From positions 2,944,001-3,008,000 of the forward strand of contig OZ244065.1 in NCBI GenBank assembly GCA_965215505.1: a DNA stretch of 64,000 nt, read 5' to 3'. Made by a program: the position numbers and the translations under genes. Under the pieces are notes generated by a model, which searched no databases, was not told the DNA's origin, and was given only the letters and a program-made list of their open reading frames with translations. The stretch is from Capsulimonadaceae bacterium. Lineage in GTDB: Bacteria > Armatimonadota > Armatimonadia > Armatimonadales > Capsulimonadaceae. How positions within the stretch are numbered: position 1 is the first letter of the stretch; the number at the start of each line of letters is the position of its first letter. Below, in pieces: positions 22,797-37,893 of this stretch.

Positions 22797-24272
22797 ATGA
22801 CAACCGAACAGACCACTCAGTCGGGCCAGGCCGCCGGGAACGCACTGCCGCGCAGCGCACCCGAAGCGCAGGGGCTTCCCGCTTCCGCCGTGCTGGCCCT
22901 CGTGGACGAGGCGGAGCGCAAGGCTTTGGGGGTCCACGGCCTGATGGTCCTCCGTCACGGCCACGTCGTCGCCGAGGGGTGGTGGGACCCTTACGGGGCG
23001 CAGCGCCCGCACATGCTGTATTCGCTCTCGAAGAGCTTCTGCTCGACGGCGGCGGGCCTGGCCGTGGCGGAGGGAAACTTATCGCTCGACGACACCGTCC
23101 TGTCCTTCTTCCCCGACGAAGCGCCCGCAGCGCCCGACGCGAACCTCTCCGCCATGCGCCTGCGCCACCTGCTGTCCATGTCCACGGGGCATGAGCAGGA
23201 CACGACGGGGCGGTTGCGGGACGCCGAGGGCGGGGACTGGGTGCGCGGCTTCCTGGCCCTGCCGGTGGAGCGGACTCCCGGCACACACTTTGTCTACAAC
23301 AGCGGCGCGACCTACATGGTTTCGGCCATCGTCCAGAAGGTGACGGGGCAGACCGTCCTGGACTATTTGGGGCCGCGCCTCTTCGGGCCGTTGGGCATCC
23401 AGAACCCGACCTGGGAAACCAGCCCGCAGGGGATCAGCGTGGGAGGCTGGGGCCTGAGCATCACGACCGAGGACATCGCCCGGTTCGGCCTGCTCTATCT
23501 CCAGGAGGGGGTCTGGCACGGCGAGCGCCTGCTGCCCGCTGCCTGGGTGGCCGAGGCGACCTCGAAGCAGGTGGAGAACGGGGAGAACCCGGACAGCGAT
23601 TGGGGGGTCGGGTACGGCTTCCAGTTCTGGCGCTGCCGCCACAACGCCTACCGGGGTGATGGGGCCTTCGGCCAGTTGTGCGTGGTCCTGCCGGAGCAAG
23701 ACGCCGTCGTGGCGATCACGGCGGGCACGAGCGACCTGGGCGGCGTCCTGAACCTGATCTGGGACCACCTGCTGCCCGCGATGGGTTCCGAAGTCCTGCC
23801 GGAAGACCCGGCGGCGGAGGAACGGCTCCGCGCGCGGCTGGCCGGCCTGTCCATGCCCGCGCCGGAGGGGGAGGCATCGTCGCCCGTCGCCGCCTCCGTC
23901 TCGGGCATGACGTATGCCTTTGACGCGGGCGATGCCAACGAACACAAGGTCGAGACGGCCCGGTGGGACTTCAGCCCGGACGGGGCGGCCGTAACTGTAA
24001 AAGATGCATTGGGGGAACACCGCATCGAGGCCGGGGCGGACGGATGGCGGCACGGGACGACGACACTGCGCGAGGGCCGCGCGCTGCCGGCGGCGGCGCG
24101 GGGCGCGTGGGTGGCCGAGGACACTTACACCCTCACGGCCTTCTTCACCGAGACGCCCTACGCCCTGACGCTCTCGGCGCACTTCTCGGAGGGCGGGGTG
24201 CGGCTCGACCTGCGCCAGAACGTCTCATTCGGCCCGACCGACCGGCCACTGCTGGAAGGGAGGGCGGCGTGA
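22797..24272 (+). CDS. Serine hydrolase, beta-lactamase-like family
   Basis: SLSKS (SxxK), FVYNS, YGFQFW, RGDGAFGQ. Confidence 0.9.
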   Translation: MTTEQTTQSGQAAGNALPRSAPEAQGLPASAVLALVDEAERKALGVHGLMVLRHGHVVAEGWWDPYGAQRPHMLYSLSKSFCSTAAGLAVAEGNLSLDDTVLSFFPDEAPAAPDANLSAMRLRHLLSMSTGHEQDTTGRLRDAEGGDWVRGFLALPVERTPGTHFVYNSGATYMVSAIVQKVTGQTVLDYLGPRLFGPLGIQNPTWETSPQGISVGGWGLSITTEDIARFGLLYLQEGVWHGERLLPAAWVAEATSKQVENGENPDSDWGVGYGFQFWRCRHNAYRGDGAFGQLCVVLPEQDAVVAITAGTSDLGGVLNLIWDHLLPAMGSEVLPEDPAAEERLRARLAGLSMPAPEGEASSPVAASVSGMTYAFDAGDANEHKVETARWDFSPDGAAVTVKDALGEHRIEAGADGWRHGTTTLREGRALPAAARGAWVAEDTYTLTAFFTETPYALTLSAHFSEGGVRLDLRQNVSFGPTDRPLLEGRAA

Positions 24273-24275
24273 GCG

Positions 24276-25355
24276 GTGCCGGACTTTCCAGAGTTCAACG
24301 GAGAAAACCACAGACACATGGATGACCTTGCCGCAAACCCCGAGGGCTATGACGACTTCCTGCACGATCTAAAGACCCGCGTCCGTGCCGCCCAGGTCAA
24401 GGCGGCTTTGTCCGTCAACCGGGAGTTGGTTCTGCTCTACTGGCAGATCGGGCGCGACATCCTCGCCCGCCAGCAGGCACAGGGCTGGGGGGCCAAGGTG
24501 ATCGAGCGCCTGTCCCGCGATCTGCGGCGCGAGTTCCCTGAGATGAAGGGGTTCTCCCGCACGAACCTGATGTACATGCGGGCCTTCGCCGAGGCTTACC
24601 CAGACGAGTCAATTGTCCAGCAGGCTGCTGGACAATTGCCCTGGTTCCATAACTGTGTCCTGCTGGACAAGGTCAAAGACGAAGCTGAAAGGCTTTGGTA
24701 CGCGCATCAGACGGTCGGGCACGGCTGGAGCCGCAACGTCCTGGTCCACCAGATCGAGAGCGGGCTGTTCCGTCGGCAGGGCAAGGCGCAGACGAACTTC
24801 GCCCAAACGCTGCCCGCGCCGCAGTCCGAACTGGCCCAGCAGATGCTCAAAGACCCCTACAATTTCGAGTTCCTCAGCCTCGGGGCGGACGCGCAGGAGC
24901 GGGACTTGGAGCAGGGACTTCTGGCGCATGTGCGGCAGTTCCTGCTCGAACTCGGCACGGGCTTCGCCTTCGTCGGCAGCCAGTATCATCTGGAAGTGGG
25001 CGGGGATGACTTCTATCTGGACCTGCTGTTTTACCATGTGCGCTTGCGCTGCTACATCGTGGTGGACCTGAAGATCGGCAAGTTCACGCCCGGCGACGCG
25101 GGCCAGCTCAACTTCTACCTGTCCGCCGTGGACGACCTGCTGCGTCACCCGGATGACCAGCCGACGCTGGGGCTGCTCCTGTGCAAGTCGAAGAATGAAA
25201 CAGTCGCCGAGTATGCTCTGCGCGACATCCGCAAGCCGCTGGGCATCGCCGAATACCACCTGCAAGACGCCGTCCCCGCCGAGTACCGGGGCAGCCTGCC
25301 GACGGTGGCGGAGTTAGAGGCGGAGCTGCACCGCGCCCTCCCCGGAGACGAATGA
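24276..25355 (+). CDS. yhcG: YhcG/DUF1016 PD-(D/E)XK nuclease-domain protein, copy 1 (alternative start 24318)
   Basis: LYWQIG, KDPYNFEFL, FLLELGTGFAFVG, DLLFYH, GLLLCK. Confidence 0.92.
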   Translation: MPDFPEFNGENHRHMDDLAANPEGYDDFLHDLKTRVRAAQVKAALSVNRELVLLYWQIGRDILARQQAQGWGAKVIERLSRDLRREFPEMKGFSRTNLMYMRAFAEAYPDESIVQQAAGQLPWFHNCVLLDKVKDEAERLWYAHQTVGHGWSRNVLVHQIESGLFRRQGKAQTNFAQTLPAPQSELAQQMLKDPYNFEFLSLGADAQERDLEQGLLAHVRQFLLELGTGFAFVGSQYHLEVGGDDFYLDLLFYHVRLRCYIVVDLKIGKFTPGDAGQLNFYLSAVDDLLRHPDDQPTLGLLLCKSKNETVAEYALRDIRKPLGIAEYHLQDAVPAEYRGSLPTVAELEAELHRALPGDE

Positions 25356-25364
25356 GGCCACCCC

Positions 25365-25817
25365 ATGCCTGAACTCTACACCATCGGCTACCAGGGCGTC
25401 TCGCAGGCGGCCCTGCTCCGAACGCTGGCGTTCCACGCCGTCCAAACCCTGCTGGACATCCGCGAGCGGCCCCAGAGCCGCAAGCCCGGCCTATCCAAGA
25501 CCGCCTTGGGGCAGGCCGCCGCCGGCTTCGGCATCCGGTACGCGCACCTCGGCGCGCTGGGAACGCCCCGCGAGGTGCGTTACCGGCGCAAGATGGACCA
25601 CGATGCCGAGGCGTTCAAAGAGGGGTATCTAGAATATCTCGCGACGCAGGACGAGGAGATGGCTGCCTTGGTCACACGGGCGGAGCGGGAGAGCTGCTGT
25701 CTGCTGTGTTACGAGAAGGACGCGCAGGAATGCCACCGCCTGTTCGTCGCCGAACAGGCGGAGCGGATGAGCAGGGGGCATCTGATGCCCGTGCATCTGG
25801 CGGTGTCGGAGGATTAG
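25365..25817 (+). CDS. DUF488-domain protein
   Basis: LYTIGYQG, DIRERPQSRKPG, LLCYEKD...CHR. Confidence 0.85.
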   Translation: MPELYTIGYQGVSQAALLRTLAFHAVQTLLDIRERPQSRKPGLSKTALGQAAAGFGIRYAHLGALGTPREVRYRRKMDHDAEAFKEGYLEYLATQDEEMAALVTRAERESCCLLCYEKDAQECHRLFVAEQAERMSRGHLMPVHLAVSED

Positions 25818-26170
25818 GGGAAGGGCCTGCGTGTCACTCAGTCAGCGCGTGCGCTTCGGGACGCGCAACGTCAGCCGGGGCCGGAGGCGGCGGAACGTCC
25901 GGTCCTTTAGCGACCGGACCCGCTGCCAGTGGGAACGGCGGGTGTGGGCAGCAGCGGTCGTCGCTGCCGTCTCCGTCAGTCTGAGGTAGAAGAGGGCGGC
26001 CAGAGCGAGATAAATGCCGAATAGTCCTAACATCATCACTGCCACACGCTTTCCGATGCCCGCAAACCTCGGCATCCATTAACTGGTTTATCTCACGGAA
26101 CAGCCGTGCCTAAACATCAGCCGCGTGTGGCGCACGCTTATCACCGCCGGAACATCAACAGGAGGACGCT

Positions 26171-26557
26171 ATGAACGCCGTGTTCGAGACAGCCGCACCT
26201 TACCAGGGCGACGTGATGGAACTGCCCGTTGGAAACCTGGAAGAAGCCATCCCCTTTTACGAGTCGGTGATGGGGTTCCGGGTCGTGTCCCGCCGGGAAG
26301 CGCCGCACCGGTCCGCCGTCCTGGGCCGGGACGGCATCGAGATCGGCCTAGCCGAGAACGGCGGCGACCCCGCCCAGAACGGCTGCTTCTTCGCCGTGGA
26401 CGACGTCGAAGCCGCCTTCGCCGAACTCAGAGCGAACGGCCTGGGCCGGCAGGAAGCCGGTTTCCGGCTGGACCGCTATGGGGACGCCGCCTACCGCGTC
26501 TTCTTCGTCATCGCCCCGGACGGGCTGTGTTATTCCCTCGGCCAGCGTCAGGACTGA
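26171..26557 (+). CDS. VOC/glyoxalase family protein
   Basis: GGAGG RBS; AIPFYESVMGF, FFAVDDVE, APDG. Confidence 0.85.
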   Translation: MNAVFETAAPYQGDVMELPVGNLEEAIPFYESVMGFRVVSRREAPHRSAVLGRDGIEIGLAENGGDPAQNGCFFAVDDVEAAFAELRANGLGRQEAGFRLDRYGDAAYRVFFVIAPDGLCYSLGQRQD

Positions 26558-27831
26558 GGCGCGGGGTCGGTCGAGGCCACGGGACCGGGCACGGCCAGCA
26601 GGGCGGGCGTCCGGTCGGGCATGTGCCAGTCGCTGTCGAGGTACTCGGTCCAGACGCGGTCGTAGGTCTGGATCGTCTGCCGCGCGATGGTGTGCCAGTT
26701 GAAGGTCGTCTGCACCCGCTCGTAGGCGGCCTCGACCATGCGGGCGGCCGTCTCCGGCTCGTGCAGCAGCTTCAGCAGGCCGTCGGCCAGCGAGTTGGGG
26801 TTGCCGGCGTAGGTGGTAATGCCGGTGACGTTGTTCTCGACCACTTCCGGCAGGCCGCCGCCGTCGGAGACGACGACCGGGACGCGGGCGGCCATCGCCT
26901 CCAACGCGACGATGCCGAACGGCTCATAGAGAGAGGGGAAACAGGCAATATCTATGATGCTGTAGATCTTCAGCAGGTCGTCGTCGGGCACGAAGCCGGC
27001 GAAGTAGACGTGCCGCTCCATGCCGAGATACGCGGCGAGGTTGACCAGGTGTTCGCGCTGGCCCCCGCCGCAGATGAGCAGTTTGGCGTCGTGGTAGCCC
27101 CAGCGGACCTTGGGCAGCGACTCGATGAGGACCTGGACGCCCTTCTCGCGCACCATGCGGCCCACGAAGAAGATGATCTTTTCTTCCGGTGCGGCGTACC
27201 GGGCGCGGAAGGCGGCCTTCTCCTCCGCCGTGAAGTGCGGCAGCCGGAACTTGGCGGCGTCCACGCCGTTCGGGATGATGTCCATCTTGTCCCAGGGCGT
27301 GTGCAGGGCGTGGTGACACTCGCGCTCCATGAAATGCGTACAGACGATGACGCGCCAGGCCTCGTTCTGGAGCTGGCCTTCCACCGAGTTGATATACTCC
27401 TGGGTCGGCCCCTTGATGCCGCTGTTGCGCCCGTACTCGGTGGCGTGGATGGTGGCGACGAGCGGCAGGTGGTATTTGTGCTTGAGCGCGGCGGCGGCGA
27501 AGTGGGCGAGCCAGTCGTGGGGGTGGAGCAGGAGCGGCATGCCGTCCGCCCTGTCCAGCAGGGCGGCGACGAGGGTGTCGGCGCGGGCGAGCATGGCGTC
27601 GTTGAGGAGCTGGACCCAGTGGACGAAGTCGTTGCCCGGCCCCGAGGGGGTGACGCGGTAGATGTGGATGCCGTCCTCGACCTCCTCGGCGAGCGCGCCG
27701 GGGTGTTCGCAGGTGACGACGTGGACCTCGATGTCCAGCTTGACCAGCGCGTGGGCCAGGTCATAGACATGGCGCGAGATGCCGCCGACGATCTTGGGGG
27801 GGTACTCCCAGCTTAACATGATGACGCGCAT
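26548..27831 (-). CDS. Glycosyltransferase family 4 protein
   Basis: WEYPPKIVGGI, GRMVREKG, YEPFGIVALEAMA. Confidence 0.93.
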   Translation of the reverse strand: MRVIMLSWEYPPKIVGGISRHVYDLAHALVKLDIEVHVVTCEHPGALAEEVEDGIHIYRVTPSGPGNDFVHWVQLLNDAMLARADTLVAALLDRADGMPLLLHPHDWLAHFAAAALKHKYHLPLVATIHATEYGRNSGIKGPTQEYINSVEGQLQNEAWRVIVCTHFMERECHHALHTPWDKMDIIPNGVDAAKFRLPHFTAEEKAAFRARYAAPEEKIIFFVGRMVREKGVQVLIESLPKVRWGYHDAKLLICGGGQREHLVNLAAYLGMERHVYFAGFVPDDDLLKIYSIIDIACFPSLYEPFGIVALEAMAARVPVVVSDGGGLPEVVENNVTGITTYAGNPNSLADGLLKLLHEPETAARMVEAAYERVQTTFNWHTIARQTIQTYDRVWTEYLDSDWHMPDRTPALLAVPGPVASTDPAPQS

Positions 27832-27849
27832 GAGTTCAAGCGCCTCCCT

Positions 27850-28365
27850 TCATTCCAACAAACGGTAGAACAGTTGCGTAGTTTCCAGCACACCGTCGCT
27901 GCTCAACGCATATTGCGGAATGGCACCCGCGCGCTGGTAGCCGAGCTGAACATACAGACTCGCGGCGTCATTCCCGGACGTGTCCAGCACCAGGAGCGTC
28001 CGCCCCGCGTCGCGAGCGGCCACTTCCACGGCGGCCAGGAGTGCCTTGGCGATGCCCCGTCGGCGATGGGCGGTGTGAACAAACAACTTCTGCACTTCGG
28101 CGCGGTGACGACCGTTGGGCGGAGTGTCGAGTCCGAGCTGAACCGCCCCTAGAACTTCATCGCCCTCACGCATTGCCAGCAGGATGCGGGTCCCCTCGTG
28201 GACGCTCACAAGAACCTGCTCCCAGTACCGCTCGGCGTCTTCGGCGGGCAGCGGAGCCAGGAACCCGACCGAAGCCCCGCCGTGTACGGCGTCCTGTAAG
28301 AGACGGACGAGGAAATGAACGAGGTGCCGCGCGGTAGGGCCTTCAAGATGCTCGACGGGTGCCAT
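27850..28365 (-). CDS. GNAT family N-acetyltransferase
   Basis: HRAEVQKLFVHTAHRRRGIA, LLVLDT. Confidence 0.88.
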   Translation of the reverse strand: MAPVEHLEGPTARHLVHFLVRLLQDAVHGGASVGFLAPLPAEDAERYWEQVLVSVHEGTRILLAMREGDEVLGAVQLGLDTPPNGRHRAEVQKLFVHTAHRRRGIAKALLAAVEVAARDAGRTLLVLDTSGNDAASLYVQLGYQRAGAIPQYALSSDGVLETTQLFYRLLE

Positions 28366-28375
28366 TCATGGGTCC

Positions 28376-29674
28376 CTACGGGGCAGCCTCCGCCCGGTGT
28401 CCGATGTCGGTGCGGTAGTGCATATGGTCGAAGCTGAGGTTCTTGACGGCGGCGTAGGCCCGCGCCCGCGCCTGCGTGAAGTCGTCGCCCAGGGCGGTCA
28501 CGCCCAGGACGCGCCCGCCGGCCGTGACGACCCGGCCCTCGGCATCGAACCGCGTCCCGGCGTGGAAGGCGACGACGTCTGACAGGTGCGCGACCTGTTC
28601 CAGGCCGTCAATCGGCAGGCCCGTGGCATACGCGCCTGGGTAGCCGCCCGAGGCGAGGACGACGCAGACGGCGCTCTGCGGCTTCCATACCACCTCGACT
28701 TCGTCCAGGTGTGCGTCGGTGACGCCCAGCAGGATGTCCACCAGGTCCGTTTCCAGCAGGGGCAGGACGACCTGAGTTTCGGGGTCGCCGAAGCGGCAGT
28801 TGAACTCCAGAGTCTTGAGCGAGCCGTCTTTGGTGATCATGATGCCCGCGTACAGCACGCCCTTGTAGGGGATGCCGGACTCGCGGATGGCTTCCACGGC
28901 GGGCCGCAGGATCTGGTCTACGGCCTGCTGGTACAGGGCGGGCGTGACGACCGGAACAGGCGAATAGCAGCCCATGCCCCCAGTGTTGGGGCCGAGGTCG
29001 CCGTCCAGAGCGCGCTTGTGGTCCTGGACCGGAACCATGGGGATGATGGTGGTGCCGTCGGTGAAGGCCATCAGCGAGGCCTCTTCGCCCTCCAAAAACT
29101 CCTCCACGACCACAGTATCACCGGACGCGCCGAAGACGCGCTCGCGCATGATCTGCGACAGCGCCTCCTGCGCCTCGGCCTCGGTGCGGCAGATGAAAAC
29201 GCCCTTGCCCGCCGCCTCGCCGTCGGCCTTGACGACCAGGGGCGCGTCGGCCTGCGCCTGGAAGTGGGTGCGGACGTAGTAGGAGGCGGCTTCGTGCGAG
29301 GTGAACGTGGCGAAGTAGGCGGTCGGGATGTTGTAGCGCAGCATCAGCCCTTTGGCGTAGGCCTTGGAGCCTTCGAGCAGGGCCGGCTCGCGGGCCGGGC
29401 CGAAGATGCGGAGGCCGCGCTGCTCGAACTGGTCCACGATGCCGGCGATGAGCGGCACTTCCGGCCCGACCACGGTCAGGTCAATGCCGTTCTCGACGGC
29501 GAACTGGAGCAGACCGTCGCCGTCGGTGATCGCCAGCGGCACGCACTCGGCCAGATTCGCGATCCCGGCGTTGCCCGGCGCGCAGAAGAGCCGGCTCACC
29601 TGCGGACTCTGCGCCAGCTTCCAGACCAGAGCGTGTTCGCGCCCCCCGCCGCCGATCACCAGAACTTTCAGCAT
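28376..29674 (-). CDS. purD: Phosphoribosylamine--glycine ligase
   Basis: GGGGREHAL, GPNTGGMG, EFNCRFGDPETQ. Confidence 0.97.
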   Translation of the reverse strand: MLKVLVIGGGGREHALVWKLAQSPQVSRLFCAPGNAGIANLAECVPLAITDGDGLLQFAVENGIDLTVVGPEVPLIAGIVDQFEQRGLRIFGPAREPALLEGSKAYAKGLMLRYNIPTAYFATFTSHEAASYYVRTHFQAQADAPLVVKADGEAAGKGVFICRTEAEAQEALSQIMRERVFGASGDTVVVEEFLEGEEASLMAFTDGTTIIPMVPVQDHKRALDGDLGPNTGGMGCYSPVPVVTPALYQQAVDQILRPAVEAIRESGIPYKGVLYAGIMITKDGSLKTLEFNCRFGDPETQVVLPLLETDLVDILLGVTDAHLDEVEVVWKPQSAVCVVLASGGYPGAYATGLPIDGLEQVAHLSDVVAFHAGTRFDAEGRVVTAGGRVLGVTALGDDFTQARARAYAAVKNLSFDHMHYRTDIGHRAEAAP

Positions 29675-29699
29675 CCGTTCTCTTCTCTCCTGAATCTCC

Positions 29700-31205
29700 C
29701 TAGAACCCGGTCGGCTCGTCCGTGCGCGTCAGATCGAGGTCCACGAATTTTGCGAACTGAGGTAAAAATCCGACCTTGACCATGCCGGTCGGCCCGTTGC
29801 GGTGCTTGCCGACGATGATCTCCGTCTCCTCCATCTCCGCCATCTCGGGCCGCTCCCCGCCCTCGACGTTGAAGGCTTCCTTCATCTTATAGTATGCCTC
29901 GCGGTACAGGAAACAGACCATGTCGGCCTCGGCCTCGATGGACCCCGATTCTCGAAGATCTGAGAGCATGGGCCGCTTGTTCTCGCGGCTCTCGACGGCG
30001 CGCGAGAGCTGGGACAGGGCGACGACAGGGACTTTCAGTTCACGGCCCAAGGACTTCAGGCCGCGCGCGATCTCGCCGATTTCCTGGACGCGGTTCTCCG
30101 TTTTACGGTGGGAACGCATGAGCTGGAGGTAGTCCACGATGATCAGCCCCAGGCCGTTATGCTCGGCCATCAGGCGGCGGCACTTGGCGCGCATGGTCAA
30201 GGCAGACGTGTCGGTGGCATCATCAATGAAGATGGGGGCCTCGTACATGTTCTGGACGACCTCGGCCAGTTTGGTCCATTCGTCCTCGTTCAGGTGGCCG
30301 GTCCTGAGTTTGTGCGAGTTTACCTGTGCCTGGGAGCAGAGCATCCGCAGGGCGAGCTGTTCCTTGGACATTTCCAGCGAGAAGATCGCGACCGGCTTGT
30401 GTTCCTTGATGGCGACGTGTTCGGCTATCGATAGACACAACGAAGTTTTTCCCATGCTCGGCCGGGCTGCCACAATGATCAGGTCCGTGTTTTGCAGGCC
30501 CGACGTGATCATGTCGAAGTCGTGGATGCCGGTAGACAGGCCGGAGATGCGGGACTTCATCTCGCTGAGTTCTTCGGCCTTGTCGTAGACCGAGAGCAGC
30601 AGGGTCCGCAGGGGGGAGAAGTAGGCGACGGCGCGCTGCTGGGAGACGCTGAAGATGGACCGCTCGGCCTCGTCCAGCACCTCGCTGACGTCTTCCACCT
30701 CGCCGCGCGCCGACCCGATGATCTCCAGGGAGGCGGAGATCAGGCGGCGCAGGGTGGCCTTTTCTTCGACGATCTTGGCGTAGTATTCGACGTTGGCCGC
30801 CGTCGGGACGGTGTCGAAGAGGGCGGCGAGGTAGGCCATGCCGCCGATGGCGTCCAGTTGGTCGCGGTTCTTGAGTTCGTTGGGGACCGTCACCAGGTCA
30901 ATCGGCTCGTCGCGCTCGGCGAGGAAGGTGATGACGTCGAAAAGGGTCTGGTGGTTTTCGCGGTAGAAGTCTTCCTTGTCCAGAATCTCGAAGACTTTTT
31001 CGACGGCCGTGCGCTCGATCAGCATCGCGCCCAATGTGGACTGTTCTGCTTCGATGGAGTGCGGCGGGACGTAGGCGCCCAGCGGCCCGCCGCCGCTGCC
31101 GCCGAAGGCGTTGCCTCCGTTGTAGCCGCCATTGCCGTTGCCGTTGCCGTTGCCGCCGTTATAGCCGCCGGGGCGGCCTGATTTGTAGTCGCTGCGTTCA
31201 GGCAT
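29700..31205 (-). CDS. dnaB: Replicative DNA helicase
   Basis: PPHSIEAEQ, AARPSMGKT, VDYLQL, SDLRESGSIE, KHRNGPTG. Confidence 0.97.
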   Translation of the reverse strand: MPERSDYKSGRPGGYNGGNGNGNGNGGYNGGNAFGGSGGGPLGAYVPPHSIEAEQSTLGAMLIERTAVEKVFEILDKEDFYRENHQTLFDVITFLAERDEPIDLVTVPNELKNRDQLDAIGGMAYLAALFDTVPTAANVEYYAKIVEEKATLRRLISASLEIIGSARGEVEDVSEVLDEAERSIFSVSQQRAVAYFSPLRTLLLSVYDKAEELSEMKSRISGLSTGIHDFDMITSGLQNTDLIIVAARPSMGKTSLCLSIAEHVAIKEHKPVAIFSLEMSKEQLALRMLCSQAQVNSHKLRTGHLNEDEWTKLAEVVQNMYEAPIFIDDATDTSALTMRAKCRRLMAEHNGLGLIIVDYLQLMRSHRKTENRVQEIGEIARGLKSLGRELKVPVVALSQLSRAVESRENKRPMLSDLRESGSIEAEADMVCFLYREAYYKMKEAFNVEGGERPEMAEMEETEIIVGKHRNGPTGMVKVGFLPQFAKFVDLDLTRTDEPTGF

Positions 31206-31261
31206 GGGGAAAGTCCGGGGCGCGTCTCAGTGAAAGAGCGCGCGCCCCGTGTCGGGAGGGC

Positions 31262-31708
31262 CTATTCGGCGATGACGGCGACTTTGAGGGGGACGGTGAC
31301 GTCGCGGTGCAGCTTGATGGGCACGTCGTACTCGCCAACGGCCTTGATGGGGTCCAGAAGGCCGACCTTGCGCTTGTCCAGCTTGACGTTCAGGTCGCGC
31401 TCGACGGCCTCGGCGATGTCTCCGGCCGTGATGCGGCCGTAGAGGCGGCTGTTCTGGCCGGCCTTGACGGTGAGGGTGATGGTCTTCTCGTTAAGCATCT
31501 CCGCCGTGCGGTCGGCGTCGGAGCGCATCCGCTCGGTGCGGCGCTCTTCCAGGGCGTGTTTGGTCTGGAGGTTCTTGAGCGCCCCCCCGGCGGCCTCGAT
31601 GGCGAGCTTGCGGGGGTAAAGGTAATTACGGGCATAGCCGTCGGCGACGGTGACGACTTCCCCCTGCTTGCCCTGGTTGGCGATGTCTTGCAGCAGTATG
31701 ACTTTCAT
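31262..31708 (-). CDS. rplI: 50S ribosomal protein L9
   Basis: MKVILL, DGYARNYLYP; AGGA RBS; start 31708. Confidence 0.97.
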   Translation of the reverse strand: MKVILLQDIANQGKQGEVVTVADGYARNYLYPRKLAIEAAGGALKNLQTKHALEERRTERMRSDADRTAEMLNEKTITLTVKAGQNSRLYGRITAGDIAEAVERDLNVKLDKRKVGLLDPIKAVGEYDVPIKLHRDVTVPLKVAVIAE

Positions 31709-31746
31709 GGTGCGTTCTTCCTTTGCGTGTGTAGTAATGATAGTCC

Positions 31747-31899
31747 GCCACGGGTTGAAACCCGAGGCTCCGAAGTGTCCACCGTCGAAGCGACGTGAGA
31801 CATGAACAGGAGGGCGGGGGGACCCCGCCCCTGCAAAACCTGGCCTCTTGCGTCCCGTGGACGCTGGGCTTTTCTCAGCCCCGGGTTTCAACCCGTGGC
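31747..31899. repeat. REPIN/MITE-like element, family A copy 1
   Basis: 23-bp TIR gccacgggttgaaacccgaggct / agccccgggtttcaacccgtggc; internal hairpin at ~31812-31834; homologous to 53738-54014. Confidence 0.85.
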
Positions 31900-31900
31900 C

Positions 31901-33451
31901 TCATTTCGACTGCCGGTATTCCAGCCCGAACAGGGTGCCGGCGTGGCGGTTCAGGCTTTCGCCGCCGACGACCAGGCCGAGTTCGGGGGCCAGCATCAGG
32001 ACGCCCTTGGCGTCCACATGGTAGTTGTTCGGGTCGTAGACGTCAAGCGACAGTGTCGTGCGCCGCCCCAGGCCGATGTCGCCGCCGAGCGAGAGCTTGG
32101 AGGCGTAGAAGCCCGCGCGGACGTCCGTTTTGCCGTCCGCCCCCAACCCGCGCCCGCCCTCCAGAATCAGCTTGTTCGCGCCCCCAAAATCGTAGATCCC
32201 CGCCCGCGCGAAGGTGACGGGCGCGACGCTGAGTGGCACGAGCGCGTCAATGTCGGTGCGGAAGCGCCGCTGTCGCGTGTTGACGACCGCGTCCACGCGC
32301 GGCAGGTAGTACGGGGCACCCAGGGCCGGCGCGGGCGTCGGGTTGACGGTCGGCACCCCGCCCGGCACGATCACGGTGGGTCCGCCGGGGACGACGACGG
32401 CGGCCGTCTTGGAGCGGACGCCCGCCAGCTTGTTCAGCCGCTCCAGGAGCAGATTCGCCTGCGCGCTGCTGGCGGCGATGTTGGCGACAGTCTCGCGCAG
32501 GTTGCTCTGCACCTTCGGGTCGCCGGTCAGCGACTGGAAGTTGCCCGCGATGGCGTTGAACTTGGCCGTGGTCTGCGCCAGGTTGTCGGTGGTCGTCTTC
32601 AGGTTGGCGACGGCGGCCTGGAGGTTGCCGCCCTTCAGCGATGCGTTCGCCTGCCCGGTGATGCCCGCGACCGACGAGGTCGTGTCGTTCAGGTTATGCA
32701 CGATGGCGGCGATCTGGCTCTTGTTGTCGCGCGTGATGTCCCGGATCGAGGCCGTGGTGGCGGCGATGTTGTCCAGCGAAACCTGCGCCCCAGACCCCGT
32801 CTGCCGCAGCAGGCCCTGTAGCTGGGCGTTGTCCGCGACGAGCAGGCCGTTGAGCTTGTCGGTCAGCTTCAGCCCGTTGGCTGAGGCGGCGTTGATGTTG
32901 CCCACGGTCTGCACCAACCCGCCCCGGATTTTCGGGTCGCCGGCCAGTTCGGTGACCTTGTCCAGCAGGAGGTCGGCCTTCTTGGCCGTCTGCGTGAGCT
33001 GGTCGAGCAGCACGGTCGCCTTGCCGAAGGAGGCCGTCAGGTCGCCCGACTGTTCGCCCTTCAGGTCCTCGCCCTCCCGGACGGTGTCACCGGGCCGCTT
33101 GTAGGCGTCGGCGGGCGGAGTGACGACGACGGTCCCACTCGTCCCGAGCAGGGGCGTGGTGATCGTGAACTGCGAGCCGTGCGGGATGGCGTACTCTTTT
33201 TTCACCTGGATCTTCAGGTCGGCCTTCTGGGCGGCGGTCAGCCTGACGCGCTCCACCTTGCCGATCTGCACCCCGGCCAGAGTTACCGGCGTGTCCGCCG
33301 TCACCCCCTTGGCATCGTCGAACAGGACGTCGAACGAGTAGGTGTTATTCGCCGCCAGTGTGCCGCGCAGAAAAAAGAACATGCCCGCGAAGAGGGCGAT
33401 CGCCAGCACGAACACCACGCCCACACCGCCCGCGTTTCCCAGAGTCCTCAT
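31901..33451 (-). CDS. mlaD: MlaD/MCE family protein with long helical region and beta-rich C-terminus
   Basis: FDDAKGV...VTLAGVQIGKV, PLLG MCE signature. Confidence 0.85.
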   Translation of the reverse strand: MRTLGNAGGVGVVFVLAIALFAGMFFFLRGTLAANNTYSFDVLFDDAKGVTADTPVTLAGVQIGKVERVRLTAAQKADLKIQVKKEYAIPHGSQFTITTPLLGTSGTVVVTPPADAYKRPGDTVREGEDLKGEQSGDLTASFGKATVLLDQLTQTAKKADLLLDKVTELAGDPKIRGGLVQTVGNINAASANGLKLTDKLNGLLVADNAQLQGLLRQTGSGAQVSLDNIAATTASIRDITRDNKSQIAAIVHNLNDTTSSVAGITGQANASLKGGNLQAAVANLKTTTDNLAQTTAKFNAIAGNFQSLTGDPKVQSNLRETVANIAASSAQANLLLERLNKLAGVRSKTAAVVVPGGPTVIVPGGVPTVNPTPAPALGAPYYLPRVDAVVNTRQRRFRTDIDALVPLSVAPVTFARAGIYDFGGANKLILEGGRGLGADGKTDVRAGFYASKLSLGGDIGLGRRTTLSLDVYDPNNYHVDAKGVLMLAPELGLVVGGESLNRHAGTLFGLEYRQSK

Positions 33452-33482
33452 AACACCTCAAATCGGCTCCGCCAAATTGACC

Positions 33483-34298
33483 CTACCGGCGCGCGACGTC
33501 AATCGGCCCGTGCGAGCGGCCCTCGATGAACTGGCGGACGATCGGGTCCTCGCACGCCTGGATCTCCTGCGGCGTGCCGGTGGCGAGGACACGCCCGTCG
33601 TGGATCATGGCGATCTTGTCGCTGATCCGGAAGATGCTCGGCAGGTTGTGCGAGACGACGATGCTGGTGACGCCCAGCTTGTCGCGCATCTGCATGATCA
33701 GCTCGTCCACGACGCTCGCGATCACCGGGTCAAGCCCCGAGGTCGGCTCGTCGTAAAGCAAAATCTCCGGCGACATGGCGATGGCCCGCGCCAGGCCCAC
33801 CCGCTTCGCCATGCCGCCCGAGAGCTGCGAGGGGTACATCGCCTCAGTGCCGGGCAGACCGACCAGGGTGAGCTTCTCGGCGACGATCTTCTTGATCTCG
33901 TCGGCGGGCAGCCTGCGCCGCCGCCGCAGGCCGAAGGCGACGTTTTCGAATACGGTCAGCGAATCGAACAGGGCGGCGTACTGGAACACCATGCCCATGC
34001 GCTCGCGGACGCGGTTCAGCTCGTTCTCGCGCATCCCGACGATCTGGGCGTCCCCGATCCGTATCTCGCCGCTCGTCGGCGCGGTCAGGCCGCCCATGCA
34101 GTGGAGTACGGTGGTCTTGCCGGACCCGGACATGCCCATGACGCTCAGGATCTCGCCCGGCCCGACGCCCAGTGTGACGCCCTTCAGGATCTGCTTGCCG
34201 GGCACTTCAAAGCGCAGATTGTTGACCTCGATCCAGGCCGGTTCGTGCCAGCCGGCCTCGTCCCGCGCGTCCGCTTCAGTTGTCGCCGCGTCCGTCAA
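33483..34298 (-). CDS. mlaF: MlaF-like ABC ATP-binding protein
   Basis: GMSGSGKT, LSGGMAKRVGLARA, LYDEPTSGLDP; TTG start overlaps the permease stop. Confidence 0.88.
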   Translation of the reverse strand: MTDAATTEADARDEAGWHEPAWIEVNNLRFEVPGKQILKGVTLGVGPGEILSVMGMSGSGKTTVLHCMGGLTAPTSGEIRIGDAQIVGMRENELNRVRERMGMVFQYAALFDSLTVFENVAFGLRRRRRLPADEIKKIVAEKLTLVGLPGTEAMYPSQLSGGMAKRVGLARAIAMSPEILLYDEPTSGLDPVIASVVDELIMQMRDKLGVTSIVVSHNLPSIFRISDKIAMIHDGRVLATGTPQEIQACEDPIVRQFIEGRSHGPIDVARR

Positions 34299-35131
34299 AG
34301 CGAAGTCACCTGGCTGAACATGAAGTACGTCATGATGAAGTTCGCGATGTAGATCAGCACGATGGACAGCACGACCGCGTTGGTCGTCGCCCGCCCCACC
34401 TCGGTGGCCCCGCCGCGCGTCGCCAGACCCTGGTGGCAGCCGACCAGGGTGATGATCAGGCCGAACACGACCGTCTTCAGGATGCCTTTGATGAAGTCCG
34501 ACGGGTCCAGGAAGTCCTTCATCGAGTTCAAATAGGTCGTCGGCAGTACGCCCTCCGAGTTCGAGAGCAGATAGCCGCCGCCGATGCCCGCCGCATCGGC
34601 CAGCGCGCAGACCAGCGGCACCATGATGACGGCGGCCAGGATGCGCGGCACGACCAGGTATTGGATCGGGCTGACGGCCAGGGCGCGCAGGGCGTCTATC
34701 TGCTCGGTCACCTTCATCGTGCCCAGCTCGGCGGCGATGGCCGACCCGGCGCGGGCCGCGACGACCACGCCGGTCAGGACCGGCCCAAGCTCCCGTGCGA
34801 TGGCGAGCGCGACGACCGCGCCTGTAAAACCTTCCGCCCCGTACTGCTTCAGGAACGGCGCAAAATAGAGCGCCAGAACCGCCCCGGACGTGGAGGACGT
34901 TAGCAGGGCGATGGCGACAGAGTTTACGCCGAGCGACGACATCTGCTCCATCAGGTCGCGGACGTCTATGCCGCCGCGCAGGGCTTTGATCGCCCGCCCG
35001 AGCAGGATCAGGATCTCGCCCAGATAGACGAACACGGCCACGAACGGGTTCAGGATCGCCTTGAGCGTCGCCTCGCCCAAGGGCGCAGGGGCCACCGCCG
35101 GGGCGGGCGCTGCCGTGGTTTGGTTTGCCAT
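34295..35131 (-). CDS. mlaE: MlaE-like ABC permease
   Basis: RELGPVLT, AELGTMKVTEQIDAL, VGRATTNAVV. Confidence 0.92.
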   Translation of the reverse strand: MANQTTAAPAPAVAPAPLGEATLKAILNPFVAVFVYLGEILILLGRAIKALRGGIDVRDLMEQMSSLGVNSVAIALLTSSTSGAVLALYFAPFLKQYGAEGFTGAVVALAIARELGPVLTGVVVAARAGSAIAAELGTMKVTEQIDALRALAVSPIQYLVVPRILAAVIMVPLVCALADAAGIGGGYLLSNSEGVLPTTYLNSMKDFLDPSDFIKGILKTVVFGLIITLVGCHQGLATRGGATEVGRATTNAVVLSIVLIYIANFIMTYFMFSQVTSL

Positions 35132-35162
35132 AAGAAGCAGTAACGGGCCGAGACGAGCCGGG

Positions 35163-35300
35163 CGAGTGAATGAATTCACTCGCTGACATCGGATTTGTCC
35201 AAGAGACAATGGAGAGGGATGAGGCCCGACGGCCTCCCGTCTCTGTCACCTCTTCTGTCCCCTGGACAGGTTCCGGTCAGCGAGTGAATTCATTCACTCG
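35163..35300. repeat. REPIN/MITE-like element, family B copy 1
   Basis: Perfect 25-bp IR cgagtgaatgaattcactcgctgac / gtcagcgagtgaattcattcactcg; core ggatttgtcc...ctcttctgtcccctggacagg shared with 43921-44138. Confidence 0.85.
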
Positions 35301-35456
35301 TGCCGCCACCGTTCCGCGCCGCGCGTGCGGACGAGCGGGCCGAAATCCGCTACAGTATACTGGTAAACGGGGGCCTAAGTCAAGGCGGAGGCCGAGCCGC
35401 CGGGGCACAGCAGCGGGCAGGCAGGAATCGCGCGCCTTGAAGTGGAACTGTCCGCC

Positions 35457-36047
35457 ATGCTGACTAATGATGAAGTGCTACAGATTTTCCGCGACTCCGG
35501 CGCGCTGCTGGAGGGCCATTTCCTGCTGGCTTCGGGCTACCACAGCGCCGTCTATTTGGAGAAGTTCCAGGTCCTCCAGTTCCCGCGCTACGTCGAAACG
35601 CTCTGCAAGGACATCGCCGAGCGGTTCGCGGGGGACGAGGTGCAGGTGGTGATCGGGCCGACGACGGGCGGCGTCCTGCTGGCCTACGAGGTCGCCAAAA
35701 ATTTAGGGGTGCGCGGCATCTTCGCCGAGCGCGGCGACGACGGGCAGGGCCGGGTCCTGCGCCGGGGCTTCGAGATCAAGGAGGGCGAGAACGTCCTGCT
35801 GGTGGACGACATCCTGACGACCGGCGGCAGCGTCCGGGACACGATGCAGGTGGTGGAAGGCTACCAGGGGAACCTCGTCGGCGTCGCCGTGCTGGCCGAC
35901 CGCAGCGGCGGGGCGGTGGACTTCGGCGTCCCGCTTGAAGCCCTGCTGCGCCTGGACGTGGAGAAGTTCGCCCCCGACGCTCTCCCCGACTGGCTGGCGG
36001 CCATCCCGCTGACGGAGCGGGGTAGTACGCACCACTTGAAGGCATAG
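35457..36047 (+). CDS. pyrE: Orotate phosphoribosyltransferase
   Basis: GHFLLASGYHS, LLVDDILTTGGS. Confidence 0.95.
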   Translation: MLTNDEVLQIFRDSGALLEGHFLLASGYHSAVYLEKFQVLQFPRYVETLCKDIAERFAGDEVQVVIGPTTGGVLLAYEVAKNLGVRGIFAERGDDGQGRVLRRGFEIKEGENVLLVDDILTTGGSVRDTMQVVEGYQGNLVGVAVLADRSGGAVDFGVPLEALLRLDVEKFAPDALPDWLAAIPLTERGSTHHLKA

Positions 36048-36069
36048 CAGCGATTCGTAAACACCGACG

Positions 36070-36282
36070 ATGCCCCTCAAAAGGAAGCTGTTACTGACTG
36101 CGCTCATCATCTCGGTAGGCGTAGGGTTGTATTGCTCGTTCTGGTTCTTTCTGTACGCGTGGGCGGAGAATGGGCCAGGTTACCATCTGGACCGAACGCC
36201 CGGCGACCGCTATTTCCGGCTGGCTGCCGCCGACTGGCTGCTGGTCGTCCTGCCGCTTTTCTGGCTATTGAAACATCGGTAG
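36070..36282 (+). CDS. Small hypothetical membrane protein
   Basis: Two hydrophobic segments; fills the gap between co-oriented genes. Confidence 0.45.
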   Translation: MPLKRKLLLTALIISVGVGLYCSFWFFLYAWAENGPGYHLDRTPGDRYFRLAAADWLLVVLPLFWLLKHR

Positions 36283-36310
36283 CCCCCGGATGCATCTCGC
36301 AAAGGCCCAC

Positions 36311-37429
36311 ATGACGCTGCCTGAACAACCTTCTGCCGAACTGCTGCCGACACCAGCTAACGACATCGAGCCGCTTTATGAGCGCATCCACGCCATCCTG
36401 ACTTCGGCCCGCACGAACGCCGTGCGGACCGTCAACACGGAGATGGTGCGCGCCTACTGGCTCATCGGGCGTGAGATCGTGGAGGAGGAACAGGCAGGAC
36501 AGGCGCGGGCGGCCTACGGCGGGGACGTGATCGCGCAGATTTCAGCCCGCTTGCAGGCGGGGTTTGGCAAGGGTTTCACCCAAACCAACATCAAGTACAT
36601 GCGCCTTTTTTACCTTGCTTACCCACGACTTTTGGATGCCGATCAGATTCGTCACGCAGTGCGTGACGAATTCAAGACCACCGGAATTCTGAACCCAAAC
36701 CTTTCCTGGACGCACTTCCGACTGCTGACCCGCATCACGTCCCCCCACGCGCGCTCCTTCTATGAGCTCGAAGCCGACAGCAACCGCTGGTCGTCGCGTG
36801 AGCTAGAGCGCCAGATCAGCAGCATGCTGTTTGAGCGGCTGGCACTGAGCCGCGACAAGCAAGGGCTGATGGCATTAGCGACCCAGGGGCAGGAAATCCA
36901 AACGCCCGAGGACGCCACCAAGGACCCGGTCGTTCTGGAGTTCCTTGGCCTGCCCGAATCATCCCGCCTGGTGGAGTCGGACTTGGAAGAAGCCTTGCTG
37001 ACCAACTTGCAGGCGTTCCTCCTGGAAATGGGCAAGGGGTTCGCCTTTGTCGCCCGGCAGCAGCGGCTCACGCTGGACGGCGACCACTTCTATGTGGACC
37101 TCGTTTTCTATCACGCGGTCTTGAAGTGCTACGTCCTCGTTGACCTCAAAACGGGCAAGCTCACCCACAGCGACATGGGGCAGATGCAATTCTACGTCAA
37201 CTACTACGACGCCGAGCGGCGCACGGAGGGTGATAACGCGACCATAGGCTTGATCCTGTGCGCCGACAAAAACGACGCGGTCGTCCGGTACACGCTCGAC
37301 AAGGCGAACGCGCAGGTGTTCGCCAGCCGCTACCAATTGCACCTCCCGAGTGAGCAGGAACTCGCGGAAGAACTGCGGCGGGAACTGCGGCGGACACGCC
37401 CCCTGGAAGAAAAGAAGCAAGCAACATGA
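36311..37429 (+). CDS. yhcG: YhcG/DUF1016 PD-(D/E)XK nuclease-domain protein, copy 2 (alternative start 36290)
   Basis: YWLIGREIVEEEQ, LSWTHF, KDPVVLEFL, DLVFYH, IGLILCA. Confidence 0.92.
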   Translation: MTLPEQPSAELLPTPANDIEPLYERIHAILTSARTNAVRTVNTEMVRAYWLIGREIVEEEQAGQARAAYGGDVIAQISARLQAGFGKGFTQTNIKYMRLFYLAYPRLLDADQIRHAVRDEFKTTGILNPNLSWTHFRLLTRITSPHARSFYELEADSNRWSSRELERQISSMLFERLALSRDKQGLMALATQGQEIQTPEDATKDPVVLEFLGLPESSRLVESDLEEALLTNLQAFLLEMGKGFAFVARQQRLTLDGDHFYVDLVFYHAVLKCYVLVDLKTGKLTHSDMGQMQFYVNYYDAERRTEGDNATIGLILCADKNDAVVRYTLDKANAQVFASRYQLHLPSEQELAEELRRELRRTRPLEEKKQAT

Positions 37430-37893
37430 AACAGAAAAACCTACTGACGATCACCCTCCTCGGCGGCGCGCTGGCCGGGACCCTCCTCGGCCTGGGTGCG
37501 ACGCGCCTGACGCCTTCGGCCCACGCCGCGCCCGTGAAAGAAACCACCGCGCCGGCATCTGGGTCGCTGGCGGACCAGATTTCGGGGAAGGCGTTCCCGC
37601 TGTCGCTGCCCGCCGAGAAGATCGACTCGAATTACCACCTGATCGGCCTGGTGGACGCGCAGGGCAAACCGGCCCAGATCGCCACGCGCGGCGACACGAC
37701 CGTCATGGGCGGCGAGACGTTCCTGGTCTGCTACGACGTGCCGGTGACGGACGCGAAGACGCGCCCGCCGCAGCCGAAGGCGGGGGCGACCGGGACGCTC
37801 ATCTATGTCAACCTGCGGATGGTGCAGGCGATGGGCGGCATCATCCCCATCGCGCCTGCCGAGACGGTCGCGCCCGCCGCCGCACCGCTCTAG
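37426..37893 (+). CDS. Hypothetical secreted protein
   Basis: Signal peptide ending AHA; ATGA overlap. Confidence 0.7.
   Translation: MKQKNLLTITLLGGALAGTLLGLGATRLTPSAHAAPVKETTAPASGSLADQISGKAFPLSLPAEKIDSNYHLIGLVDAQGKPAQIATRGDTTVMGGETFLVCYDVPVTDAKTRPPQPKAGATGTLIYVNLRMVQAMGGIIPIAPAETVAPAAAPL

Follow-up and report, generated by a model that had tools for sequence, protein, structure and literature searches.

Short DNA palindromes bound by dimeric helix-turn-helix heads are known from parS, the site of ParB/Spo0J, and from OB, the site of KorB. One B. subtilis parS lies within the spo0J gene, and parS and OB sequences are conserved and do not covary. Coding DNA is also the target of the protein it encodes in lambda ori, whose iterons lie in gene O, and in the pT181 origin, which lies in repC. 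Here we examined a 64,000-nucleotide (nt) stretch of a Capsulimonadaceae bacterium genome (GenBank assembly GCA_965215505.1, contig OZ244065.1, positions 2,944,001 to 3,008,000 of the forward strand), called the window below, in which two genes of the DUF1016/YhcG family each carry a palindrome inside the coding sequence. To our knowledge, this very widespread nuclease family has no known function. We found that conservation of the palindrome lies in its DNA symmetry and not in the encoded peptide. As judged from sequence comparisons, both palindromes are examples, found in this window, of a DNA-level element characteristic of the DUF1016/YhcG family, whose members are often found in restriction-modification and defense loci according to passages of PMC9881135.

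The YhcG element resembles parS and OB in that the N-terminal domain (N-domain) of YhcG superposes on the heads that bind those sites. It differs from them in being ~27 to 29 bp long with a variable core, and its binding is putative and the homology weak. The likeness to lambda ori and the pT181 origin is that coding DNA would, putatively for YhcG, be the target of its own product; those origins serve the replication of mobile replicons, whereas the YhcG genes of the window sit among chromosomal housekeeping genes. A likeness of another kind is to inverted repeats whose arms are homogenized by template switching, as described in parts of PMC8604942 (yeast coding sequences) and PMC5941160 (proteobacteria). 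In such repeats the arms change together, changes span several nucleotides, and perfect repeats are overconserved; the YhcG element likewise shows simultaneous, complementary changes of both arms, including multibase blocks. However, the repeats analyzed in the passages of PMC5941160 are noncoding, and neither abstract describes a single palindrome fixed at the same codon throughout a protein family. Perfect inverted repeats in genes, with both arms translated, are also described for Nematomorpha mitochondria in passages of PMC6649704. Those are numerous, long (up to 284 bp), and found in the mitochondrial genomes of four species, whereas YhcG genes of bacteria and archaea have one short element per gene at a fixed position, with a tandem pair only in one gene fragment (c6, below). 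An intragenic yhcG/DUF1016 palindrome was not described in any paper found in the literature library that was searched, and the passages of PMC7967276, PMC6060812, and PMC5941160 that were retrieved make no mention of one.

The copy 1 gene (24276 to 25355, plus strand) encodes 359 amino acids with a helical N-domain and a C-terminal PD-(D/E)XK nuclease domain. The copy 2 gene (36290 to 37429, plus strand) encodes 379 amino acids, and the two proteins are 36% identical. Both match PF17761 (DUF1016_N; 3.5e-48 for copy 1 and 4e-42 for copy 2) and PF06250 (YhcG_C; 1.1e-64 and 1e-59) over the full profile lengths, as well as the PADLOC candidate defense gene profile PDC-S02 (E values of 1.1e-160 and 2.5e-142). 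The copy 1 palindrome (24610 to 24638, strandless) is CAATTGTCCAGCAG-G-CTGCTGGACAATTG, with 14-nt arms and a 1-nt center, and is translated as S-IVQQAAGQL; in functional terms, either strand forms a stem of 13 bp and a loop of 3 nt. The copy 2 palindrome (36647 to 36671, also strandless) is ATTCGTCACGCA-G-TGCGTGACGAAT, with 12-nt arms and a 1-nt center, and codes for IRHAVRDEF. In both genes the central base is the first position of a codon (codon 117 in copy 1 and codon 124 in copy 2), and an ATT codon for Ile starts 12 nt 5' of the center. These palindromes, with their coordinates, arms, copy 1 peptide, shared codon phase, and ATT offset, had been reported in an earlier model-made reading of the DNA (the sequence-only reading), and all of these details were confirmed.

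Perfect symmetry of this length is rare in the surrounding DNA. Among 21 short-spacer inverted repeats in the window, three are perfect with arms of at least 12 nt, namely, those of copies 1 and 2 and one in a PBP gene (50039 to 50063). A uniform-base model predicts ~2e-4 palindromes with 14-nt arms per 64 kb. Across the 6.18 Mb of the genome (66.5% G+C), there are 35 perfect palindromes with a 1-nt center and arms of at least 12 nt; these are mostly G+C rich and terminator-like, and 3 of them are in DUF1016 genes. As single-stranded DNA hairpins, the two strands of the copy 1 palindrome have folding energies of −14.8 and −17.1 kcal/mol (z scores of −5.1 and −6.5), and those of copy 2 have −12.6 and −12.5 kcal/mol (z scores of −5.0 and −4.2). 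In a comparison over 24000 to 37600, contigs of four runs bridged the copy 1 palindrome, where no difference was seen among the 40 listed (1998 more exist), a weakly informative result.

Besides one fragment, c6, the same genome contains five DUF1016 genes of full length. In all five full-length paralogs (c1 to c5, with copies 1 and 2 of the window being c1 and c2), the palindrome begins at the same Ile codon. The arms are 14 nt in c1, 12 nt in c2, 13 nt in c3 (peptide ISQTVSAKF), and 12 nt around a 2-nt center in c5 (IVQQLLHNS), while c4 (IRDALRHEL) is symmetric over 15 positions with one mismatch. The stems of c2 and c4 differ by a single C:G-to-G:C swap, which exchanges His and Asp between the arms. 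It preserves pairing as a compensatory change, while the protein is altered at both arms. Furthermore, the palindromes use rare AT-rich codons despite the G+C content of the genome. No palindrome copies were found flanking any paralog within 400 bp, and no related AATT-type hairpins were found elsewhere in the genome, where two intergenic ones look like unrelated operators.

We then compared homologs from two sets. The first comprised the best 80 of 600 confirmed tblastn matches to copy 1-like proteins (43 to 68% identity to copy 1), spanning many phyla and including two archaeal loci from methanogen metagenome-assembled genomes (L008 and L016). The second comprised 97 more loci, drawn from 60 other genomes of the order; counting this one, 45 of the 61 same-order genomes searched have the family, often in multiple copies. 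A palindrome was called where at least 9 of the 12 positions 2 to 13 from a center in the linker formed Watson-Crick pairs. It was present in 149 of the 162 homologs that cover the N-domain, the two archaeal loci among them, and 148 of these 149 had the center at codon position 1. By comparison, only 0.08% of 163,554 other centers within DUF1016 genes reached 9 of 12 pairs. The element is also present in E. coli K-12 yhcG, where the arms are 15 nt and the loop is 3 nt. Two extragenic look-alikes in E. coli K-12 (L246, 2633 to 2657 and 10971 to 10995) resemble the yhcG palindrome (ATTC..CAGAC...GTCTG..GAAT); they lie 16 nt past the gltD stop and 16 nt past the yhcG stop and so bracket the gltF-yhcG block.

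To describe the anatomy of the element, we used the 149 distinct sequences that were left after the removal of 3 duplicates and of 10 genes that had <8 pairs or a different phase. The element lies in frame directly after the conserved GFSxxNLxYMRxF..YP helix and is a dyad with an AT-rich outer end (often AATT), 8 or 9 variable complementary inner pairs, and a 3-nt center. Its stem is 12 bp (pairs 2 to 13 from the center). Pairs 2 to 9 are Watson-Crick in 132 to 148 of the 149 sequences, with three or four pair types per position, and pairs 10 to 13 are mostly T:A, T:A, A:T, and A:T. Because pair 1 is Watson-Crick in 87 sequences versus 70 expected from base frequencies, the center acts as a 3-nt loop. 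This loop is almost unconstrained, with the form purine-(C/G)-pyrimidine in most sequences.

Next, we asked at what level this symmetry is held. Synonymous resampling with each gene's own codon usage gave a mean of 5.75 of 12 pairs, whereas 10.71 were observed, and the excess reached a P value of ≤0.001 in 117 of 154 genes. The resampled value is itself above a background of ~3 pairs, and the peptide has therefore itself been shaped for palindrome compatibility. The encoded peptide is nevertheless variable (1.8 to 2.5 bits per column), and the third base of the codon before the palindrome is A in 119 of the 149 sequences whatever the residue. Where synonymous codons offered a choice between wobble and Watson-Crick pairing, 4 wobble pairs were found versus 312 Watson-Crick pairs (at pair 4, 88 A.T versus 2 G.T; at pair 8, 99 T.A versus 2 T.G; at pair 11, 125 T.A versus 0 T.G). 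A.C and C.A, which are wobble pairs on the opposite strand, are as rare as G:T, and the element is thus complementary on both strands. An Rfam scan of 24200 to 25400 gave no match on the palindrome; one subthreshold gntR-DTE match lies beside it on the other strand. This pattern fits DNA better than RNA, because synonymous G:T pairs are avoided, both strands are paired, and no Rfam family matches; a structured RNA would show G:U-tolerant covariation. The sequence-only reading had held that symmetry is kept while sequence and peptide change, with selection on DNA or RNA structure and not on the protein. Its first part is borne out by the excess over synonymous-codon controls, the c2/c4 swap, and the covariation of the inner pairs; its second part stands for nucleic acid as such and narrows to DNA over RNA.

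We also determined how the stem changes over time by comparing independent (disjoint) gene pairs at stem pairs 2 to 9 and over the rest of the gene, with identity taken outside the linker. In 10 gene pairs of at least 80% identity, seven stem pairs had changed in both arms, all with pairing kept, and four in a single arm, when 1.0 both-arm change was expected if sites were independent. The corresponding counts were 15 both-arm and 4 single changes (3.3 both-arm expected) in 11 gene pairs of 72 to 80% identity, and 43 and 10 (13.7 expected) in 21 gene pairs of 65 to 72% identity. Across the same three classes, the stem had diverged by 11.3%, 19.3%, and 28.6%, versus 13.7%, 25.1%, and 31.9% elsewhere in the gene. 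Blocks of two or three adjacent stem pairs change together. Because the stem evolves at nearly the rate of the gene but in pairs, the comparison suggests that symmetry is probably kept by one arm being copied onto the other. With regard to spacer inversion, a further trait expected of template switching, a given loop and its reverse complement occur at similar frequencies (28 ACT and 14 AGT, 17 GGC and 15 GCC, 17 GCT and 13 AGC); among loop pairs on identical stems, exact inversions account for only 3 of 35.

Two other coding sites served as controls. The PBP-gene palindrome at 50039 to 50063 (CTCCAGCGGCGT-G-ACGCCGCTGGAG) is perfect, with 12-nt arms, and lies in a PBP/transglycosylase-like gene. 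It is not kept in 26 same-order orthologs, which have 3 to 10 of 12 pairs and no compensation, and in the nearest relatives a block of 3 bases is changed in one of the arms. ParB genes of the order, whose DNA-binding domain may be related to the YhcG N-domain, have no palindrome at the equivalent codons: of 30 genes, 4 lacked the search motif and were left unscored, and the 26 scored all had 6 to 8 of 12 pairs, no better than gene-wide maxima.

The protein was examined through an AlphaFold (AF2) model of copy 1, which has a predicted local distance difference test (pLDDT) score of 78.5. Codons 92 to 107 (24549 to 24596, plus strand; GFSRTNLMYMRAFAEA), just 5' of the palindrome, would encode the recognition helix of a helix-turn-helix, and the model has a helix at residues 95 to 107. 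This putative recognition helix is conserved at G92, S94, N97, L98, M101, R102, and F104, with G92, S94, and N97 invariant or nearly so. Residues 113 to 121, encoded by the palindrome, are ordered in the model, with a short helix at residues 111 to 116 and a mean pLDDT of 86 for the block from 111 to 120. The N-domain (residues 50 to 168) superposes on ParB-parS (6s6h_B, Z score of 7.3 with 97 residues aligned), Spo0J (1vz0_A, Z score of 7.0), and KorB-operator structures (1r71_A and 8qa8_A, Z scores of 6.4 and 6.3), and its structure matches were only to ParB/Spo0J/KorB DNA-binding domains. The C-terminal domain matches the fold of PD-(D/E)XK nucleases, the best being NucS/EndoMS (2vld_B, Z score of 11.4). 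Additionally, the acidic and Lys residues of the nuclease motif, E225, D249, D264, and K266, do not vary among the five paralogs, and E225, D249, and K266 are at least 90% conserved in 111 sequences. A Protein Data Bank sequence search with copy 1 returned nothing meaningful, the best match being a designed protein (E value of 0.071).

Among the explanations that can be set against these results, a by-product of a conserved peptide, or chance, has almost no probability left. Its one attraction, that the peptide is palindrome compatible and that resampled codons pair better than other centers do, is outweighed by the resampling itself, which refutes it, and by the variability of the peptide and the A that precedes the element. 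A hairpin acting in the transcript, through ribosome pausing, as a processing site, or in mRNA stability, is improbable. The same sequence would fold in RNA and the codon phase is fixed, but G:U-type pairs are as rare as any mismatch even where they would be synonymous, A.C and C.A are avoided too, and no Rfam family matches the palindrome. We regard this hairpin as disfavored only, because copying between arms would remove wobble pairs whether or not the element had a function. The sequence-only reading had proposed that each paralog carries a private operator or identity site, such that each YhcG would read its own inner 9-mer for autoregulation or self-recognition. In keeping with that proposal, five paralogs have five different palindromes, the N-domain resembles palindrome-binding heads, and the encoded peptide adjoins the putative recognition helix, so that site and protein change together by construction. 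However, residues of the putative recognition helix are conserved and the inner stem is free to vary, inner pairs differ even between orthologs of 80 to 89% identity, no second genomic copies of the sites were found, and broken genes keep the palindrome. We therefore consider such an operator unlikely, and this part of the sequence-only reading was not upheld.

Ranked second, after the self-site set out below, is a palindrome without function that perpetuates itself. Here, the family would merely inherit an ancestral palindrome located where the protein tolerates it, with template switching at the hairpin outpacing mismatches. This account is a strong rival, if somewhat less probable than the self-site. 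It would explain why changes in close relatives are paired and in blocks at nearly the average rate of the gene, why pairing on either side of the 3-nt loop is strictly Watson-Crick, the outcome expected of copying by fold-back, why 21 broken copies are equally intact, and why look-alikes survive outside genes in E. coli K-12; arm homogenization of this kind is described in passages of PMC8604942 and PMC5941160. It sits poorly with retention at a single codon position in 149 of 162 genes, which come from many phyla and include two archaeal loci, since loss should be irreversible, and with the comparable PBP coding palindrome, which is not maintained even within the order. Moreover, several copies are truncated or have a deletion right next to the palindrome, which suggests a cost borne by an element that would do nothing, and rare AT-rich codons are spent on it in a genome of 66.5% G+C.

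Our preferred, still tentative, reading from these comparisons is that the palindrome is a putative self-site for a ParB/KorB-like YhcG nuclease. Symmetry would be maintained as one arm is copied from the other via an intrastrand hairpin, by template switching or intra-palindrome conversion. Family-wide retention would then reflect a DNA site or structure, either a duplex dyad or an extruded hairpin or cruciform, that is acted on by the gene's own product. That product would be a ParB/KorB-like helix-turn-helix head fused to a PD-(D/E)XK nuclease, and the self-site would be comparable to parS inside parB. Recognition would be by shape and AT-rich ends and not by the variable inner 9-mer. A bolder version, in which the palindrome is the parS-like cognate target of the encoded protein and both-arm copying gives each paralog a private, self-encoded specificity, is a long shot. 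If it were true, the codons of the site would specify the segment adjoining the recognition helix, and both-arm copying would change site and reader in one step.

Several results weigh against a self-site. No further copies of any of the five palindromes that could serve as additional targets were found elsewhere in the genome. Frameshifted or truncated copies (n = 21) have a mean of 10.5 of 12 pairs, versus 10.6 in intact copies (n = 139; Mann-Whitney P value of 0.80), and because broken copies equal intact ones, maintenance of the palindrome need not depend on the protein encoded in cis. The AATT...AATT mirror is found in only 60 of the 149 sequences. Arm copying would yield strict Watson-Crick pairing anyway, and the wobble test alone is therefore no proof of a selected DNA function. 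The family-wide counts come from a nonrandom sample (best tblastn matches plus one order) of relatives that are not independent, with the palindrome center picked as the best within a window of ~20 codons. As for the head, the resemblance to ParB and KorB is weak, Z scores of ~7 being common among helical domains. An hhalign comparison of the N-domain alignment with 30 ParB proteins reached a probability of 1.7% and a pairwise E value of 0.029 in the register suggested by the fold; this weak match places YP..IVQQAA-GQLPWFHN opposite ParB LP-AEMQESIAAGQITMEHG. The whole alignment gave no hhalign match to ParB, and Pfam HTH_ParB gave no match at an E value of ≤10.

The YhcG palindrome offers a first concrete, testable lead to the DNA on which these enzymes may act. 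It is also an unusually clean natural case of a DNA-structure constraint or drive that overrides codon preference and peptide across the history of a family. The same data carry a practical warning. Covariation of this kind can mimic an RNA motif, and both a contig break and gene truncations fall at the palindrome. Such breaks may be signs of activity on the DNA at the site. In one relative (L164) an internal deletion begins six bases past the palindrome, in another (L165) the gene ends right after it, and L179 and c6 are fragments that begin at it. The c6 fragment of this genome (G000:C1:3133542-3133826; L006 1455-1740) is 5' truncated and has two different, slightly imperfect tandem palindromes that share an AATT. 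In one draft genome, a copy 2-like gene (L168/L177) is split over two contigs (G011 contigs C340 and C525). The break falls precisely at the palindrome, and neither contig end contains it; the cause may be real heterogeneity or an assembly artifact of the palindrome.

We considered an enrichment of breakpoints at the palindrome as a separate signal and did not rely on it: 5 of 36 fell in hidden Markov model (HMM) columns 105 to 120 versus ~1.6 expected, which is modest, and the ends are fuzzy. A second cluster of breakpoints among truncated copies lies in HMM columns 139 to 161. Many same-order open reading frames (ORFs), for example, L087, L112, L150, L153, L155, L158, L160, and L163, consist of the N-domain only and end in HMM columns 139 to 176. 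The short PDC-S02 profiles of PADLOC are 107 to 133 residues long, and N-domain-only ORFs may be stand-alone heads or the result of recurrent truncation.

Around the two YhcG genes of the window, the neighbors are housekeeping genes with the exception of a DUF488 gene (25365 to 25817), which begins 10 nt past the copy 1 stop and matches PADLOC PDC-M19A (1.3e-27) and PDC-M45. The DUF488 gene and the copy 1 YhcG gene may be a pair. The ORF 3' of the DUF488 gene (26125 to 27816, 563 amino acids) has no Pfam or PADLOC match. Upstream of copy 2, two GAATTC-centered inverted repeats (35162 to 35184 and 35279 to 35298; GCGAGTGAAT..ATTCACTCGC and a near mirror) lie ~115 bp apart. They sit between divergent genes for an ABC-ATPase (33483 to 35249, minus strand) and a phosphoribosyltransferase (35442 to 36047, plus strand) and are operator-like, and contigs of other strains have loose ends at these repeats.

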